DNA from: Escherichia phage vB_EcoP_IMEP8
Strand: one strand, 5' to 3'
DNA length: 64,000 bases
Sequence record: NC_070993.1
Shown here piece after piece: positions 8,947-41,184 of this stretch. Each line of letters opens with the position of its first letter. Position 1 is the first letter of the stretch. A model generated the notes under the pieces. That model saw nothing but the letters and a program-made list of their open reading frames with translations, was not told the origin of the DNA and did not search any database. A program made the position numbers and the translations under genes.

Positions 8947-8972
8947 TTTTAAGACCTATACAAGCCAGTGTG

Positions 8973-20455: not shown

Positions 20456-21490
20456 ATGGCATATGGAATATGGACAACGCCAGTCGGACCGGGACCAGCT
20501 TCTCCGGCTGAGCTTTTTATCGACAGTGATACCACCTTCCCTCAATTTAAGAATAGGGTCAGTGGTAATTATAACTTTAATGGGGGCAGTAGAGATTTCC
20601 CTATTTCTGGATGGGATGGCTCAGGCCAAATCGTTGTAGTTCCAACCGGGTCTTTGTGTTGGCAATGGGAAGTCCCTCCTAACCTTGTCCCTGATGTGTA
20701 TGTTGTAAATAATATTAGTATTGTGAATAACTCAACTTTCAGAGTTAGCATAAATATGAATCCCGGAAGTAACCCATTGTTTGATGTAGCTTTTAATGTA
20801 TATCAAATATGGCCTAGGGCTAACAGAAACTACGGGATAACCTTTTCAAACACAGCTGATTACTTCTCTATATCAGATGCTGGAGTTGTTGGTCAATGTA
20901 TTTGGGCTTGGGAAGGAAATATTAATGGCTCTATGCAAATACCAGCAATCAGTGGTTTTGATATGTCTAGAGCTTCAGTGTTTGCTAACTGGTCTGGAGG
21001 ACAAGGTTTACTCTATGATGCTGGGAGTCGTAATATCAGGGTTTACCAAAACAGAACCTACGATAACGGAAACAACAACCAAACAGGAACAATCAATAAT
21101 GTGAAAGTTGCAGTGTTCTGTAATGGGGCTGGTGTTCCTACTCATAATGGTGGATTAAACATATATTCACCTAATGGTTCTCAGTGTGTATTTTCTACTT
21201 ACAGAACACCTTTTATGGTTGATCGTTTTATGGCTATGAGTGGAGGGAATACTGGACTTACATATCCTATGATACCTCTGACAAACGGAGCAGGTTCTAT
21301 TAGAGGTCAGGCGGGAAGTTGGTATTTCCAACATGCTAGATCTCATACGATGAATGGCTCTTCTTTTGGTACAGGGTATGGTCGATATATGTTCCAGTGG
21401 GATAGAAACTACGATATGGGTGGTGGTGGGGCTATCTCCCTTCAGGTTCCAGTCCTAGATGCTAGGAAAATTTTTAGAAGCATACAATAA
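20456..21490 (+). CDS. virion structural protein (344 aa)
   Basis: ORF from track; tightly packed after previous gene; Gly/Asn-rich beta-type composition. Confidence 0.45.
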   Translation: MAYGIWTTPVGPGPASPAELFIDSDTTFPQFKNRVSGNYNFNGGSRDFPISGWDGSGQIVVVPTGSLCWQWEVPPNLVPDVYVVNNISIVNNSTFRVSINMNPGSNPLFDVAFNVYQIWPRANRNYGITFSNTADYFSISDAGVVGQCIWAWEGNINGSMQIPAISGFDMSRASVFANWSGGQGLLYDAGSRNIRVYQNRTYDNGNNNQTGTINNVKVAVFCNGAGVPTHNGGLNIYSPNGSQCVFSTYRTPFMVDRFMAMSGGNTGLTYPMIPLTNGAGSIRGQAGSWYFQHARSHTMNGSSFGTGYGRYMFQWDRNYDMGGGGAISLQVPVLDARKIFRSIQ

Positions 21491-24348: not shown

Positions 24349-26004
24349 ATGCAACAGACAACTTACGCTCAGGTCAGAAGTCGTGACCCGAGAAATACTT
24401 TCTATGGTGTTAATCCGGGAGCGGCTTCGGCCTCTCCTTATATGGCTAGACCAACTCAGACAGCAGATATTTCTATGTATCAACGTCCTGCTATACCTTC
24501 ATCTCTTGCAGGTCTTGTCTCTCAGGCAGAAGAAGATCAGAATGCTATGATTAATCCGGGATTCCAGCAACGTCTCATGGAACAGCAGAATCAAGGAACC
24601 CCTACCAGTCTTCAGGGTATTGATATTGGAGCACCAGCTCCTGTAGCGGCTAATCCTAACCTATCCACTGATCAAGGTTTACAGGATGCTGGGCTTATGC
24701 CTAGTGACCCTCTTCCGGTAACACCTCCTCCTAAACCACTAGAAGCTGGTCCTATGGAGTTTACTCCTTCTCAGGTGGAACAGGCACAAGGTGTGATTAA
24801 CACTCTTGCTCAAGGACAAGACACGGGTGATGGGATGACTGCTGCTACTCGTGCTAAAGATCGGGAACGTGTTAACAATGATATCTTGCAAGTTGCGAAA
24901 GCTAAAGACCCTTCAGAAGCTTGGAACAAACTACAGAAAGAGCCGTTCTATCAGAACTCTAGTTTCTACACAGGCTTGATGGGTGTAGGTCTTTCCATTA
25001 TGTCAGGTAAGTCTCCTATCGAAGCTTTCCAGATTGGTCAGGGAATGGCTAATCAAGATGAGACTAAGAAGCAACTGGAAGCTAACCGTGATGCTCTGAT
25101 TGAACAAGGATTCTCTCAAGACTCAATTGCAGCTGCTATTGCTAATGGAGACCCATCCCTGCTTAAGATGAAAGCTGTAGACCCTGCTCAGAAAGAAGCG
25201 TTGTATGCTGCTCGTGAAGAACGACAGAATGCTGAATGGGATAGACGTCAACAGATTCAAGAGCAGACTATGCGTGAGCGTGCTGACGAAACTCGTCGTG
25301 CTGCTGAAGAAAGAGCTAATATGAACTTTGAACGTCAGAAAGAACTTATTGGCTATCGTGATCAAGTTAAAGCTGAACGTGCTGAACAAGCTGCTCAGAG
25401 TTTTAACTTCAACCCGAAAGAAGTTCGTCTTGCTCAGAACACAGCTGAAGGTACAGTTGCTAAGCAGTGGGCAGAGAAAGGTGGTCTGTTTAACCAGTCC
25501 AACAAAGACTTGGATTTGGCTGACAAAGCGGTTAAAGATAAAGACTATCAGACAGCTCGTTCTGCTTACATGCAGGCTATTATGAACTCCGCAAGGGCTG
25601 AAATCGGTGCTACTCGTTCTCTTACCGAAGAAGACTTGGGGCACTTTGCAGAAGACCCGTCAATCTTCGTTCGTGTTGGCAACAAGTTTGCACTGAAATC
25701 TGGATGGCGTCCTACTGATTCTGCTCTTGCTTATGCTCGTAAGCAGGCTAACGTTGGTCACACCTCTGCAATGAAAGGTGTTGCTGATGCTAAGAGAGCT
25801 ACGATTGAAGCTTATATTGGTTCTGGTATGGATAAGAAGAGGGCTACTGCATTGGTCAACCGTGCAATCCCTTCTGGTGGTTTCTATGATCCTCTAGGTG
25901 TTTTCTCTGAACAAGCGGAAGAAGCAGTTGGTGGTGCAGCAACCAATCCTAAGCTTAATGGTGCTTTATCAGCTGTCGAAGACACTAGCTGGTTCACTCA
26001 ATAA
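24349..26004 (+). CDS. internal virion/ejection protein (551 aa)
   Basis: Pro-rich N-terminus, helical charged C-terminal half; position in internal-protein cluster. Confidence 0.5.
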   Translation: MQQTTYAQVRSRDPRNTFYGVNPGAASASPYMARPTQTADISMYQRPAIPSSLAGLVSQAEEDQNAMINPGFQQRLMEQQNQGTPTSLQGIDIGAPAPVAANPNLSTDQGLQDAGLMPSDPLPVTPPPKPLEAGPMEFTPSQVEQAQGVINTLAQGQDTGDGMTAATRAKDRERVNNDILQVAKAKDPSEAWNKLQKEPFYQNSSFYTGLMGVGLSIMSGKSPIEAFQIGQGMANQDETKKQLEANRDALIEQGFSQDSIAAAIANGDPSLLKMKAVDPAQKEALYAAREERQNAEWDRRQQIQEQTMRERADETRRAAEERANMNFERQKELIGYRDQVKAERAEQAAQSFNFNPKEVRLAQNTAEGTVAKQWAEKGGLFNQSNKDLDLADKAVKDKDYQTARSAYMQAIMNSARAEIGATRSLTEEDLGHFAEDPSIFVRVGNKFALKSGWRPTDSALAYARKQANVGHTSAMKGVADAKRATIEAYIGSGMDKKRATALVNRAIPSGGFYDPLGVFSEQAEEAVGGAATNPKLNGALSAVEDTSWFTQ

Positions 26005-26024
26005 GACCTAAGTCCTGCCTTCTA

Positions 26025-35032: not shown

Positions 35033-35056
35033 GAAAAAAGCCACCCGAAGGTGGCT
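35033..35056 (-). terminator. rho-independent terminator after the SSB-like gene
   Basis: AGCCACC-TTCG-GGTGGCT hairpin followed by TTTTTT on the minus strand, 20 nt after the stop at 35078. Confidence 0.6.
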
Positions 35057-35077: not shown

Positions 35078-35824
35078 TTAGAATGGGCTAGAGTCGTCAT
35101 CTTCATAAGTAGAAGCAGGTTCTTTATCAATCGTAGGGATTGAAGGAGTAGCTTCTTTCTGTTCTGTTTCAGAAGCACGAGTGATTTCACGACCAGCCAG
35201 AGGCATGTTCTTAGCGTCATTAGCTTGAGTAAGCAGGTTGCGCTGGAACGGGAACATCAGTTGATAGGATGCTACGTTCTCATCGGTTTCTGCATACGGT
35301 TCGAAGAATACCAGAGGACTGCGAGCTTCACCAACTGCTGCACGATATTTGGTTGGGATTGGAGAAATGGTTTTGATGGAGTTTTTAACTTCACCAGCTT
35401 TGTTAGTGTAAGAGTTAACCAGAATGTTAACAGGCTGACCTAACAGCACATCCTTAAACCAAGACAGATCACCTTTCAGTGCTTGAATGCTTGGGTCAAT
35501 CATCTTGCAGAGATCAAGGATACCAGAGTTCTTAGCTCGTGGGTTTACATCATAACTCTTGAACTGGCAAGCCGGACGTGGTTCTAATGCCTTACCATCG
35601 GAATCTTTACCAGTAGCATCAACACCAATCAGCTCGAAAGCCAAATCCATACGGAAAGCTGGATTCTTAGGAGTTACTGCTTTGGTCTTCGGGTCAACCC
35701 AAGGGTCACGATTGTGAACACCCAAACCTACTACACGAACGATACGTGCTTCATATTCACCATCAGGGATAATGTCGTAGTTGGATTTACGGGAAGAAGT
35801 TGCGATAGTTGGAATCATAGACAT
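35078..35824 (-). CDS. putative single-stranded DNA-binding protein (248 aa)
   Basis: Acidic C-terminal tail ending ...YEDDDSSPF as in SSB/T7 gp2.5-type proteins; position beside replication genes. Confidence 0.5.
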   Translation of the reverse strand: MSMIPTIATSSRKSNYDIIPDGEYEARIVRVVGLGVHNRDPWVDPKTKAVTPKNPAFRMDLAFELIGVDATGKDSDGKALEPRPACQFKSYDVNPRAKNSGILDLCKMIDPSIQALKGDLSWFKDVLLGQPVNILVNSYTNKAGEVKNSIKTISPIPTKYRAAVGEARSPLVFFEPYAETDENVASYQLMFPFQRNLLTQANDAKNMPLAGREITRASETEQKEATPSIPTIDKEPASTYEDDDSSPF

Positions 35825-35883
35825 ATTTTAATTTCCTTATTTAATTTGAAAGATTGTTGCTCTCTTTGAGCGGTTATGTATAG

Positions 35884-35892
35884 TATACATTA
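35884..35892 (-). promoter_or_regulatory. TAATGTATA promoter-like motif (minus strand)
   Basis: Plus strand reads TATACATTA; on the minus strand this is TAATGTATA, 60 nt upstream of the SSB-like start. Confidence 0.4.
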
Positions 35893-35955
35893 CGCTTATA
35901 CCGATAAGAGTACTATATAATATAAGTATCTTTGGTAGTAGATATAACACACTAG

Positions 35956-35964
35956 TAATGTATA
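35956..35964 (+). promoter_or_regulatory. orphan TAATGTATA promoter-like motif (plus strand) in a non-coding region
   Basis: Exact motif on the plus strand pointing into 270 bp with no ATG on the plus strand and antisense to downstream minus-strand genes. Confidence 0.3.
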
Positions 35965-36240
35965 TATTGTATAGCTGATAAAGTTATTGCAGGCTTGTAC
36001 ATTGGGCAATTCACAGAATCCCTTGCAAGTACCGAAGGGCAGGAGCCACCTGCGAGATAAAAATAGAGAATTAAGGAATCCTTGATTTAGGTTGTAGGGA
36101 CTCCTAGGGACTTTGATTCTCTATTTAAAAGAATATTAATTACTTACTACCTAAATAATTAACTAACTTACTTAAACCAAATTCAAGAATAATAGATAAA
36201 AAGATTATTCCTAAGAAAGCTAAAAAGTAAAGTATATAAG

Positions 36241-36438
36241 TTACCATTCAAGTAAACCTTTAAAGTTAGACTGTTCTACTACCCTCTGATAACGAAGATT
36301 AGAATCAGCTTGTTTCTTTAACATCTCATTATATTGATCTCTGATAGAGTCTTTATAGACTACAGGTTCTTTAAATAATGAGATATTGTTCTTTTCTTCA
36401 GAGTTAGATAGTACATCCATCACAAATGAAATCCCCAC
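36241..36438 (-). CDS. hypothetical small protein (65 aa)
   Basis: ORF from track; may start at internal ATG 36420 to limit overlap with upstream ORF. Confidence 0.35.
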   Translation of the reverse strand: MGISFVMDVLSNSEEKNNISLFKEPVVYKDSIRDQYNEMLKKQADSNLRYQRVVEQSNFKGLLEW

Positions 36439-38291: not shown

Positions 38292-40136
38292 TTAGTGTGT
38301 ATGCATCCAGTTAAGTCCAATCTGACAATCAGATGCCAGAGGACATTCCATGTTCAAATACTCACCAGCTTTCTTAACACAAAGCTCAGTGTGTTCTTTG
38401 AGTTTCTGTACATCATTACGGTTCACTGAGAACTGACCCTCGTCGTGCATGTCAATTACTTTAGCACAACGAACCCCATCTTTCTCAATCCACTTGTTAA
38501 GGAACATCATAGCATATTTCATAACAACAGCACCAGCACATTGCAGGAGTGTGTTAAGTGCTTTATGAACCATAACTTTGCCAGTGGCATCTCGTCTCAT
38601 TGTAATCTTACGGCCATCAACGCCAATCAAGTATCCTTGAGCAGCTTTCTCTGTCATACGATCAATGAGGATTGCAATACATGGGTTCTCTGCTAAGAAA
38701 CGTGCTCGCATCACTGAACCTTCGTCAGCCCCACCACCTACAATTGAACCGAGCTTAGCATCACCAGCACCATAGTTGAATGCGTAGATAAACGTCTTAG
38801 CGTTGTCACGAGTAGGAAGACCAGCAAGTTTCTGGTTGTGGGAGTGGATATCACCTTCAAGGAGAATATCACGATACATAATAGCAGAAGCTAAACCACG
38901 CTCTGCCAGAGCTTTCTTAGCTGGATTATTCTCTTCGATTGCTTCAGCAAGCATATCCCTACACTCTTTAATGAGGTAGTGTGCAAGCATACGCAACTCT
39001 AATCCAGAACCATCATACCCTAAGAATACTTCTTTACCAGCGGGTATGTAATATTTGTAAGCACCTACAGGTTTATCTTTCTTCCCCGGCTTACCTTTCT
39101 CATAAATTACGTTAGTACCTTTTCGTATATAACAACCATCAGGAACAACGTTAGTAATAATGAAAGGACGAGAGTGATCATCATCTGAGTTATAGTCAGA
39201 CTCAAACAAACCGCGACACTCATGACCAAACAAACCACGGGAGGGAATATTAACCACGATACGATGTTTGAATCGAAAAGTCGGCGTAGCGCAGCTGTTA
39301 GCTTCTGCCGAAAGTTTACCATCTTCGCGTTCCTTTGCTATGAGTCCACTGATAAGACCTAGCCTGTGAGCCGCTACAACGCGTCTCTTAAGCAAACTCC
39401 CGACACTCCCTAGCTCACCCCCTAACCCTTCTTCAAGAGTCTCCTCGAGGTTTGTAGGAGCTGTAGGCCACTTGTTTGAAGTAGCTAGTGCTATCTTAAT
39501 CTCATCAAAAGTGATAGGCCTGCGTCGGTTAGGATTTAAACCTAAACCAAATACATAAGCCTTCATGTAGTTCTTAGTTTTAAACCTAAAATGCTTCTCT
39601 AAGAACTTCCTAATGTCAGCGTCAACCATCTCGGCTGTCTGTTTCTGTTTAGCATTACCTCGCATCCAAGCTGAATACCATGCTTGGTATGTTCCATACT
39701 TTCGCATATCTTTCTTGATTTCAAAAGTATTCCAAGGTTTCTTTGATACGTTAAACTCTGGAGGAAGAAAACCCTCATCCATAAGGGCTTCTTTAACTCG
39801 TGCATCTTTCGATGGGTCAAAGTCTACGTATTCAACACAGGTGAATGCTCCACCAATGTCTTCTCTCTTAAGACCAACTCTATCGCAATAGACTTGAGGC
39901 CACTTCTGTAAAGCTCCAGACTTCTTAAATGGCTTCATATAAGTAGAGCCATCTAATCTCATCTTAGGTAAGAGAGGAATCAGTTCTTTGTCAATATTAA
40001 CAATAATCTCTTTAAGGAGGTGAACATACCACCGAGCATTTCTTCGGTTGAAACTCACTCCGTGCTTCGCTTGCTTAGAGATTATATCAGCGACAGTCAT
40101 CTCTGTCAAAAATGGGAGAGCGTCCGGGTTGCTCAC
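38292..40136 (-). CDS. DNA polymerase, family A, polymerase domain only (614 aa)
   Basis: Motif A LGYDGSGLELRMLAHY, motif B RDNAKTFIYAFNYGAG, motif C VIDMHDEG; no 3'-5' exonuclease motifs in this polypeptide. Confidence 0.9.
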   Translation of the reverse strand: MSNPDALPFLTEMTVADIISKQAKHGVSFNRRNARWYVHLLKEIIVNIDKELIPLLPKMRLDGSTYMKPFKKSGALQKWPQVYCDRVGLKREDIGGAFTCVEYVDFDPSKDARVKEALMDEGFLPPEFNVSKKPWNTFEIKKDMRKYGTYQAWYSAWMRGNAKQKQTAEMVDADIRKFLEKHFRFKTKNYMKAYVFGLGLNPNRRRPITFDEIKIALATSNKWPTAPTNLEETLEEGLGGELGSVGSLLKRRVVAAHRLGLISGLIAKEREDGKLSAEANSCATPTFRFKHRIVVNIPSRGLFGHECRGLFESDYNSDDDHSRPFIITNVVPDGCYIRKGTNVIYEKGKPGKKDKPVGAYKYYIPAGKEVFLGYDGSGLELRMLAHYLIKECRDMLAEAIEENNPAKKALAERGLASAIMYRDILLEGDIHSHNQKLAGLPTRDNAKTFIYAFNYGAGDAKLGSIVGGGADEGSVMRARFLAENPCIAILIDRMTEKAAQGYLIGVDGRKITMRRDATGKVMVHKALNTLLQCAGAVVMKYAMMFLNKWIEKDGVRCAKVIDMHDEGQFSVNRNDVQKLKEHTELCVKKAGEYLNMECPLASDCQIGLNWMHTH

Positions 40137-40864: not shown

Positions 40865-41116
40865 TTAAACTCCTTTAGGGAATGGGATGAGGTTTTCTAC
40901 TGCAACACGGAATTCTTTCTCTACATCTTTATTCTTATAAGAAATGAACTTCCCGTCAGCTCCACGTAGGATTACGTTAGTACGAGCTGTTTTTGGGTTA
41001 TGACTAATCTGGTTTGCAATAATATTAGCAATGCCGTGGTTATTGGTAAATTTCCATTTAACCATACGATTGTTAGACATTACATCAATGATATTTACAG
41101 ATTTTACAATAGACAT
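40865..41116 (-). CDS. small protein, paralog pair member B (83 aa)
   Basis: C-terminal ...TARTNVILRGADGKFISYKNK...AVENLIPFPKG similar to the adjacent ORF. Confidence 0.45.
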   Translation of the reverse strand: MSIVKSVNIIDVMSNNRMVKWKFTNNHGIANIIANQISHNPKTARTNVILRGADGKFISYKNKDVEKEFRVAVENLIPFPKGV

Positions 41117-41184
41117 ATTTATTACCTAAGAAGTTTAATTTGGTTTATATAAAAGAAAAGGCCACCCATTTGGGTAGCCTCATA

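Follow-up and report, generated by a model that had tools for sequence, protein, structure and literature searches.

A probable orphan gp36 promoter and a candidate structured noncoding RNA, antisense to a gene cluster, in phiEco32-like phages

The stretch of DNA analysed here (the window) is 64,000 nucleotides of Escherichia phage vB_EcoP_IMEP8 (NC_070993.1), which by its similarities is a Kuravirus, that is, a phiEco32-like podophage of E. coli. Between its homologues of phi32_40 and phi32_41 (hereafter genes 40 and 41) lies a gap that contains two back-to-back copies of the promoter element read by the phage sigma factor gp36. The leftward copy belongs to P40, the known promoter of gene 40, while the rightward copy is an orphan that faces no gene. 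We think it fairly probable that the orphan is a gp36 promoter of the P68 class and that it transcribes a conserved, structured noncoding RNA antisense to the gene cluster. If so, gp36-bearing E. coli RNA polymerase, aided by gp79, would initiate at ~35971 once infection reaches its middle phase, and the product would be a noncoding RNA antisense to the whole leftward cluster. The conserved part of this RNA, ~156 nucleotides (35971-36126), is predicted to consist of a 5' hairpin (H1), an exchangeable domain (H2) and two further hairpins, one small (H3) and one long and at the 3' end (H4). Together with a U-run, H4 would probably also act on the opposite strand, stopping leftward transcription from gene 41 just before P40. 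Activity of the promoter, the 3' end of the RNA and its function are inferred; an antisense or other regulatory RNA and a replication primer are candidate roles. A small structured or antisense RNA had been suggested for this site in an earlier note on the same DNA, and the suggestion now has comparative support from the P68-type box and its spacing, the evolutionary footprint of the promoter, a local maximum of conservation and covariation in H1.

Promoters for E. coli RNA polymerase with gp36 as its sigma factor have a single conserved element, tAATGTAtA, centered near -11, and transcription starts 6-8 nucleotides downstream of it. Six such promoters have been published, located before genes 6, 13, 26, 40, 58 and 68 (Lavysh 2022 Table S3; SU10 Table S2). 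The sequence TAATGTATA, which we identify by its match with this published element, is present in six exact copies in 64 kb, where 0.72 are expected, and none of 100 shuffled sequences reached six. The homologues of the published promoters, and the two promoters of the gap, are as follows.

1502, plus strand: P6 homologue, TAATGTAgA
8973, plus strand: P13 homologue, TAATGTATA
26025, plus strand: P26 homologue, TAATGTATA
35892, minus strand: P40 homologue, TAATGTATA, the leftward promoter of the gap (see also below)
41553, minus strand: P58 homologue, TAATGTATA
46276, minus strand: P68 homologue, aAATGTATA
35884-35892, minus strand: element of P40, TAATGTATA, with a predicted start near 35877 (Lavysh 2022 Table S3; SU10 Table S2)
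35934-35945, plus strand: -35 box of the orphan promoter, GGTAGTAGATAT, recognized by its identity with P68, with GGTA at -37 to -34
35956-35964, plus strand: -10-like element of the orphan promoter (P+), TAATGTATA, with predicted start A35971

The divergent copies at 35884-35892 and 35956-35964 had been correctly reported in the earlier note. The minus-strand copy is the gp36-dependent middle promoter P40, and its element is invariant across 18 aligned relatives. The plus-strand copy is part of an extended match, TAATGTATATA, and the site has the complete architecture of P68. Both have the same -10-like element, (T/A)AATGTATA, and an identical box, GGTAGTAGATAT, at -37 to -26, so placed that each follows the architecture GGTAGTAGATAT-N10-(T/A)AATGTATA, and in both the predicted start is 7 nucleotides downstream. 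The 12-mer GGTAGTAGATAT occurs only twice in 64 kb, at 35934-35945 on the plus strand and at P68 (46287-46298, minus strand), each time 10 nucleotides upstream of a -10-like element. In the cryo-electron microscopy structure of the P68 open complex, the C-terminal domain of gp36 contacts -37G and -34A, and mutation of these positions abolishes transcription (Nucleic Acids Research 2025, PMC12276001). The GGTA of the plus-strand box places a G at -37 and an A at -34, and -34 is an A in all six homologues of the published promoters in the window.

Conservation of the site was assessed in 40 loci, representing 31 distinct sequences, from Kuravirus, Suseptimavirus, Nieuwekanaalvirus and metagenomes. 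Exact-pattern scans of IMG/VR and a metagenome collection contributed only 11 of these loci, all of them in near-complete Kuravirus-like genomes. GGTA is retained in all 31 distinct sequences and TAATGTATA in 30, whereas the 11 nucleotides that separate the box core, GGTAGTAGATA, from the element occur in 12 sequence variants of constant length. Working promoters usually leave such a footprint in comparisons, in which the -35 and -10 elements are conserved and the spacer drifts in sequence but not in length. Some relatives carry an insertion of ~140 nucleotides between the two promoters, and in these the plus-strand promoter remains with the block to its right. The insertion (positions 686-829 of locus L021, EcM-vB1; also in L004/L026 and L029-L033) contains an open reading frame (ORF) on the minus strand for a basic protein of 47 amino acids, and the genomes that have it also carry the type-B form of the middle domain described below.

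The plus-strand site departs from the published promoters in one respect. Each of the six precedes a gene that it reads in the sense direction, but the plus-strand site faces away from every gene: no middle or late gene follows it in that direction, and there is no plus-strand ORF of at least 60 amino acids for ~7.5 kb. The site is absent from the promoter lists consulted, namely those restated in later papers, among them the lists for phiEco32, NJ01, ECBP2, KBNP1711, SU10 and 172-1. At least one earlier bioinformatic promoter search covered only the gene-sense strand of intergenic regions, so the site may have been missed for this reason.

Downstream of the plus-strand promoter is a noncoding unit of ~156 nucleotides that is more conserved than the genes flanking it. 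Compared with ECBP2, the 100-nucleotide window from 36050 is 92% identical and the surrounding coding DNA ~70-86%; compared with KBNP1711, windows starting at 36000-36100 are 96-97% identical and the single-stranded DNA-binding (SSB)-like gene 40 ~73-90%. About 110 nucleotides of the unit are near-invariant, including loops. Conservation stops at the 3' end of H4, and Paul-type phages diverge from the very next base. Phages that have lost gene 41 retain the unit. Its predicted structures, obtained by using RNAalifold on 13 distinct sequences with the type-A form of H2, and the two tracts that adjoin H4 are listed here.

35971-35987, plus strand: H1, a 5'-terminal hairpin (AUAGCU-GAUAA-AGUUAU) that begins at the predicted first transcribed base
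35990-36032, plus strand: H2, a variable middle domain in which 35993-35999 pair with 36024-36030, with an additional GGG/CCC helix
36039-36053, plus strand: H3, the hairpin GCAGG-AGCCA-CCTGC, with invariant stems and one loop position that is C or A
36061-36126, not assigned to one strand: H4, a 66-nucleotide hairpin whose base is an 11-bp perfect inverted repeat, at the end of the conserved unit
36054-36063, minus strand: U-rich tract UUUUUAUCU, directly after H4 as read on that strand
36122-36240, not assigned to one strand: the most AT-rich stretch of the 64 kb, 83.8% AT over 80 nucleotides, overlapping gene 41

H1 exhibits two covarying pairs (UA/GC and CG/UA/AU) and one GC/GU change among the 13 type-A sequences, and its stem occurs in the independent forms AUAGCU/AGUUAU, AUAGCU/AGCUAU, AUAGUU/AACUAU, AUAGA/UCUAU and AGAGUU/AACUCU. 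Transcripts from P68 and P58 also appear to begin with a hairpin, as the predicted plus-strand RNA does. H2 exists in two forms: type A, found in the window, has the helices GCUUGUA/UGCAAGU and GGG/CCC, and type B, found in some relatives, is longer and has a UCUCUCA/UGAGAGA hairpin instead. The H3 hairpin had been recognized in the earlier note, but placed at 36035-36049 rather than at 36039-36053.

The perfect 11-nucleotide inverted repeat that had been reported at 36061-36071 and 36116-36126, and that forms the base of H4, is present and extends to 14 nucleotides at 93% complementarity; on the plus strand, 5 further pairs are possible by way of G.U pairs. H4 folds better than shuffled sequences on both strands (z of -3.0 and -4.1 on the plus strand, and of -3.9 on the minus strand). 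Four invariant G.U pairs, and a change from A-U to G.U in XT18, hold on the plus strand only, as the four become A.C mismatches on the minus strand. H4 also contains the tandem repeat TAGGGACT at 36095-36102 and 36105-36112, likewise as reported, although the count of this 8-mer in the window (3, with 1.9 expected) is not significant by itself.

A protein-coding function of the unit was considered and rejected. There is no ATG on the plus strand, and the only ORF on that strand (32 amino acids, with a TTG start) is disrupted by the type-B domain. Short minus-strand ORFs within the unit are not conserved, and an ATG at 36001-35999 is present only in the variant found in the window.

Several results count against a noncoding RNA transcribed from an orphan promoter. 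One metagenomic contig (L029, ERZ1034915 NODE_75) has TAATaTATA, which alters the -11G contacted by gp36 (equivalent to position 35960). A further locus, L030, has a change from T to C just after the plus-strand element; these changes reflect either a promoter loss that the phage tolerates or a mistake in assembly. A literature search yielded no RNA-seq or primer-extension result for the plus strand. The helices of H2 to H4 never vary, and therefore provide neither covariation support for their fold nor a contradiction of it. Folding, which the earlier note had proposed as a check, favors H4 as described above, but the RNA as a whole folds only weakly better than shuffled sequences on either strand (z of about -1.8). 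The covariance-model search proposed at the same time gave no meaningful match to the region: no Rfam 15 family reaches its gathering score in the window, and the best E-value in the region is 0.74 in a search at E <= 10, with a score well short of the cut-offs.

The unit is also absent from more distant relatives. In IMG/VR, relatives with 67-69% identity in the SSB-like protein have at this place a gap of ~150 nucleotides that is unrelated and lacks the unit, and 7-11-like phages (SSB-like protein 41-44% identical) have either a gap of 75-100 nucleotides with a sense promoter only, or an HNH gene. The unit is therefore limited to the phiEco32-like group, namely Kuravirus, Suseptimavirus and Nieuwekanaalvirus. 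The predicted RNA has no homologue or mimic of host or plasmid origin in 5,426 E. coli genomes or in PLSDB, a search for trans targets within the window produced only 9-12-mers at chance level, and no tRNA or tmRNA was found in the window.

Finally, there is no convincing intrinsic terminator on the plus strand, either after H4, which is followed by UUUAAAAG, or anywhere from 36.1 to 42 kb. A discrete RNA of 156 nucleotides is therefore an assumption. The plus-strand RNA may be cut back to H4, it may continue as an antisense transcript of genes 41-57, or its end may be hybridized to DNA.

The last of these fates leads to another explanation, in which the site is a transcription-primed replication origin. 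Here the orphan gp36 promoter would make a pre-primer RNA, and a stable RNA-DNA hybrid in the AT-rich tract would prime rightward synthesis. The conserved structured segment would then be a pre-primer of the ColE1 RNA II type, such that this explanation extends the one that we favor rather than excluding it. We regard an origin as rather unlikely. ColE1 RNA II and the mitochondrial light-strand promoter/conserved sequence block (LSP/CSB) transcript are pre-primers for DNA synthesis, the primary origin of T7 consists of promoters phi1.1A/B and an AT-rich region, and the T4 origins ori(uvsY) and ori(34) consist of a middle-mode promoter and a DNA unwinding element. Like the T7 and T4 origins, and like the T7 orphan promoters phiOL/phiOR, the site has a predicted phage-specific promoter that lacks a coding target and lies near replication genes, in this case the SSB-like gene and those for DNA polymerase, sigma factor and exonuclease. 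As the orphan promoter is of the P68 (middle) class, its firing would coincide with expression of the replication genes, and the absence of both a plus-strand terminator and a coding target fits a primer role.

Downstream of the predicted promoter comes the genome's most AT-rich DNA, an arrangement that resembles the T7 and T4 origins. The earlier note had called the region AT-rich, and 36122-36240 is indeed the most AT-rich stretch of the window whether 60, 80 or 120 nucleotides are considered, with the spacer between the two promoters ranking third among 80-nucleotide windows. Moreover, the first 60 nucleotides after H4 are 78-85% AT in three unrelated downstream contexts among the relatives. 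However, the tract begins ~150 nucleotides after the predicted start, and in the window it is largely coding sequence of gene 41, an AT-rich gene for a hydrophobic peptide. The TTACTTA-like units noted previously are present in this tract, but they lie inside or beside gene 41 and are not kept in relatives that lack the gene. Second in AT content within the window is 41040-41180, a stretch next to the terminator of the P58 transcription unit.

The site also differs from the T7 and T4 origins in having ~150 nucleotides of conserved structured sequence between promoter and AT-rich tract, in using the host polymerase with a phage sigma factor rather than a phage RNA polymerase, and in that its predicted transcript opposes local gene transcription. 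Cumulative GC skew peaks at ~30-31 kb, changing sign at ~30.5 kb where gene orientation switches, and has no inflection at 36 kb, although this is a weak test of an origin because transcription direction dominates skew. The 7-11-like phages share the replication module, yet at this place have only their short gap with a sense promoter, and a literature search on Kuravirus origins found nothing. An origin of the iteron type, with at least three direct repeats of ~17-22 bp, can be discounted, as only the two 8-bp copies of TAGGGACT are present and nothing else is iteron-like.

A function confined to the minus strand is another possibility, and one that we consider improbable. According to this explanation, H4 and its U-tract, with H3 and H2 as back-ups, form a terminator or insulator, or a site of RNA processing or stability; leftward transcription from gene 41 ends before P40, and the promoter-like site on the plus strand is silent or unimportant. 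On the minus strand, H4 starts 14 nucleotides past the stop codon of gene 41 (predicted free energy -17.8 kcal/mol, with the z of -3.9 given above) and UUUUUAUCU follows directly, which makes it a plausible candidate for a leftward intrinsic terminator ahead of P40. The cluster also seems, as a rule, to be divided into short insulated units, because P40 and P58 each drive one gene that is followed by a strong GC-rich terminator (35039-35056 and 41158-41181, both on the minus strand). The natural genome with a mutated plus-strand element is also consistent with this explanation. However, a consensus terminator scan does not report H4 on this strand, because its stem is AT-rich and long, with a 44-nucleotide interior, and the four invariant G.U pairs of the plus strand are mismatches here. 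A terminator requires structure rather than sequence, which leaves the ~110 near-invariant nucleotides unexplained, as is the conservation, at fixed spacing, of both halves of a P68-type promoter. In the explanation that we favor, a noncoding RNA from the orphan promoter is combined with H4 probably doubling as a terminator on the other strand.

Least probable among the explanations that we weighed, and in our view quite doubtful, is an element that acts as DNA, either a site at which a DNA-binding protein of the phage sits, the TAGGGACT repeats being spaced by one turn of the helix, or a junction where exchangeable gene modules recombine and which frequent exchange keeps uniform, or both. The two copies are 10 bp apart, and in Paul-type phages both have lost one G, giving AGGACT twice. 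In these relatives (L016-L019, L023, L034 and L040), (T)AGGGACT has become AGGACT in both repeats and the spacing has gone from 10 to 9 nucleotides; this joint change suggests either that a recognition unit is repeated or that one copy has converted the other. The region is also mosaic, with H1 type, domain A or B, repeat type and downstream gene content in differing combinations, and it borders variable gene content that includes gene 41, a phosphoesterase gene and HNH insertions. However, no candidate binding protein is known, TAGGGACT does not recur elsewhere in the window in a regulated pattern, and an element of this kind would account for neither the promoter architecture nor the covariation in H1. 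We also rejected a type I toxin-antitoxin pair involving gene 41, as the RNA unit stops short of this gene and persists without it.

Among known systems, phage cis-antisense RNAs such as lambda OOP RNA and P22 sar resemble the RNA that we propose. These too are short noncoding RNAs that have their own promoter, are directed against neighboring genes and reside in a region of replication or regulation. In the window, the predicted RNA would run toward the 3' end of the small gene 41. Unlike RNAs of the OOP or sar type, it lacks an intrinsic terminator on its strand, and the conserved unit stops 14 nucleotides before gene 41, persists where this gene has been lost, and is far more conserved in sequence than simple antisense function would require. 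T4-type PeSL cassettes are units of a promoter and a stem-loop at module junctions. The minus strand of the gap has a similar arrangement, with a stem-loop or terminator followed by P40, at an edge of variable gene content and with mosaic exchange. In contrast to PeSL cassettes, the unit occurs in a single copy rather than as a dispersed repeat, is far longer and more conserved, and has an additional divergent promoter. What is new is a probable orphan promoter in the known gp36 class and a new candidate for a phage noncoding RNA, and not a new kind of system.

The locus belongs to a leftward cluster of middle genes that also carries the genes for sigma factor gp36, exonuclease and DNA polymerase, and all annotated genes from ~30.5 kb to the end of the window are on the minus strand. 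A search with the 2.2 kb that surround the site gave 97 matching phage records, almost all of them Escherichia phages, with identities of ~93-97% to the listed phiEco32-like phages, and in the annotated phiEco32 record the corresponding site is between phi32_40 and phi32_41. The features that flank the gap are as follows.

35078-35824, minus strand: gene 40 homologue (phi32_40), 248 amino acids, called SSB-like, identified as an ORF and by homology
35056-35039, minus strand: strong leftward terminator downstream of gene 40, found by a terminator scan
36140-36247, minus strand: gene 41 homologue (phi32_41), a 35-amino-acid hydrophobic peptide, identified as an ORF and by a match to PHROG 24970 (E = 4e-23)

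The earlier note had described 35825-36240 as 415 bp of noncoding DNA. Since the phi32_41 homologue occupies 36140-36247, the real gap is 315 nucleotides (35825-36139). The statements that 35825-36240 contains no ORF of at least 60 amino acids and that 35965-36240 contains no plus-strand ATG both hold. What had been overlooked is the phiEco32-like identity of the phage, the correspondence of the minus-strand motif to P40, and the presence of an annotated gene in the right-hand quarter of the interval.

The label "SSB-like" for gene 40 is supported by the annotations of other depositors, who list its homologue as a single-stranded DNA-binding protein in Ptacy1532 and SeKF_80, and by the acidic C-terminus of its product, which ends in Phe (...EDDDSSPF), but sequence searches of Pfam, PHROGs and PDB give no function. 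The start of gene 41 overlaps the stop of the ORF upstream. Its product is 25 or 35 amino acids long in most relatives and 40 in one contig, whereas in phages of the Paul/ECBP2 type the gene has shrunk to 3-10 codons and the conserved unit is still present. By this comparison, gene 41 is dispensable and is not part of the unit.

Other sites in the window bear on gp36 promoters in general. The late promoters P13 and P26 have AAGACCTA in common at -37 to -30 (8951-8958 and 26003-26010, plus strand). This sequence and the GGTAGTAGATAT box of P68 and the plus-strand site may be class-specific upstream boxes that help to separate late from middle gp36 promoters. An exact copy of TAATGTATA at 20794-20802 on the plus strand resides inside a late ORF (20456-21490) and has ACCC at -37 to -34; it is probably not a promoter, because it lacks the A at -34 that is common to all published promoters. 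The sequence TAATGTAGA at 55315-55323 on the minus strand, the same variant as in P6, shares with P40 the tetramer AGTA at -37 to -34 and could be a gp36 promoter internal to the ORF at 54339-56030 (minus strand). In addition, a promoter that matches the sigma-70 consensus at 12 of 12 positions (TTGACA, 17 nucleotides, TATAAT, with an upstream TG) is found at 40081-40109 on the minus strand, within the first ~55 nucleotides of the DNA polymerase ORF (38292-40136, minus strand); no other 12/12 match occurs in 18 kb.

phiEco32 is a model for the takeover of E. coli RNA polymerase by a phage sigma factor, gp36, and its cofactor, gp79, and members of the Kuravirus group are under development as therapeutic phages. 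The transcription map of phiEco32 has been described as containing six gp36 promoters. A seventh promoter that is equally well formed, conserved and directed against all genes would add a noncoding or antisense layer to this map, and could mark either a regulatory RNA or the Kuravirus replication origin. If the latter is true, the onset of replication would be tied directly to the switch from sigma-70 to gp36/gp79.

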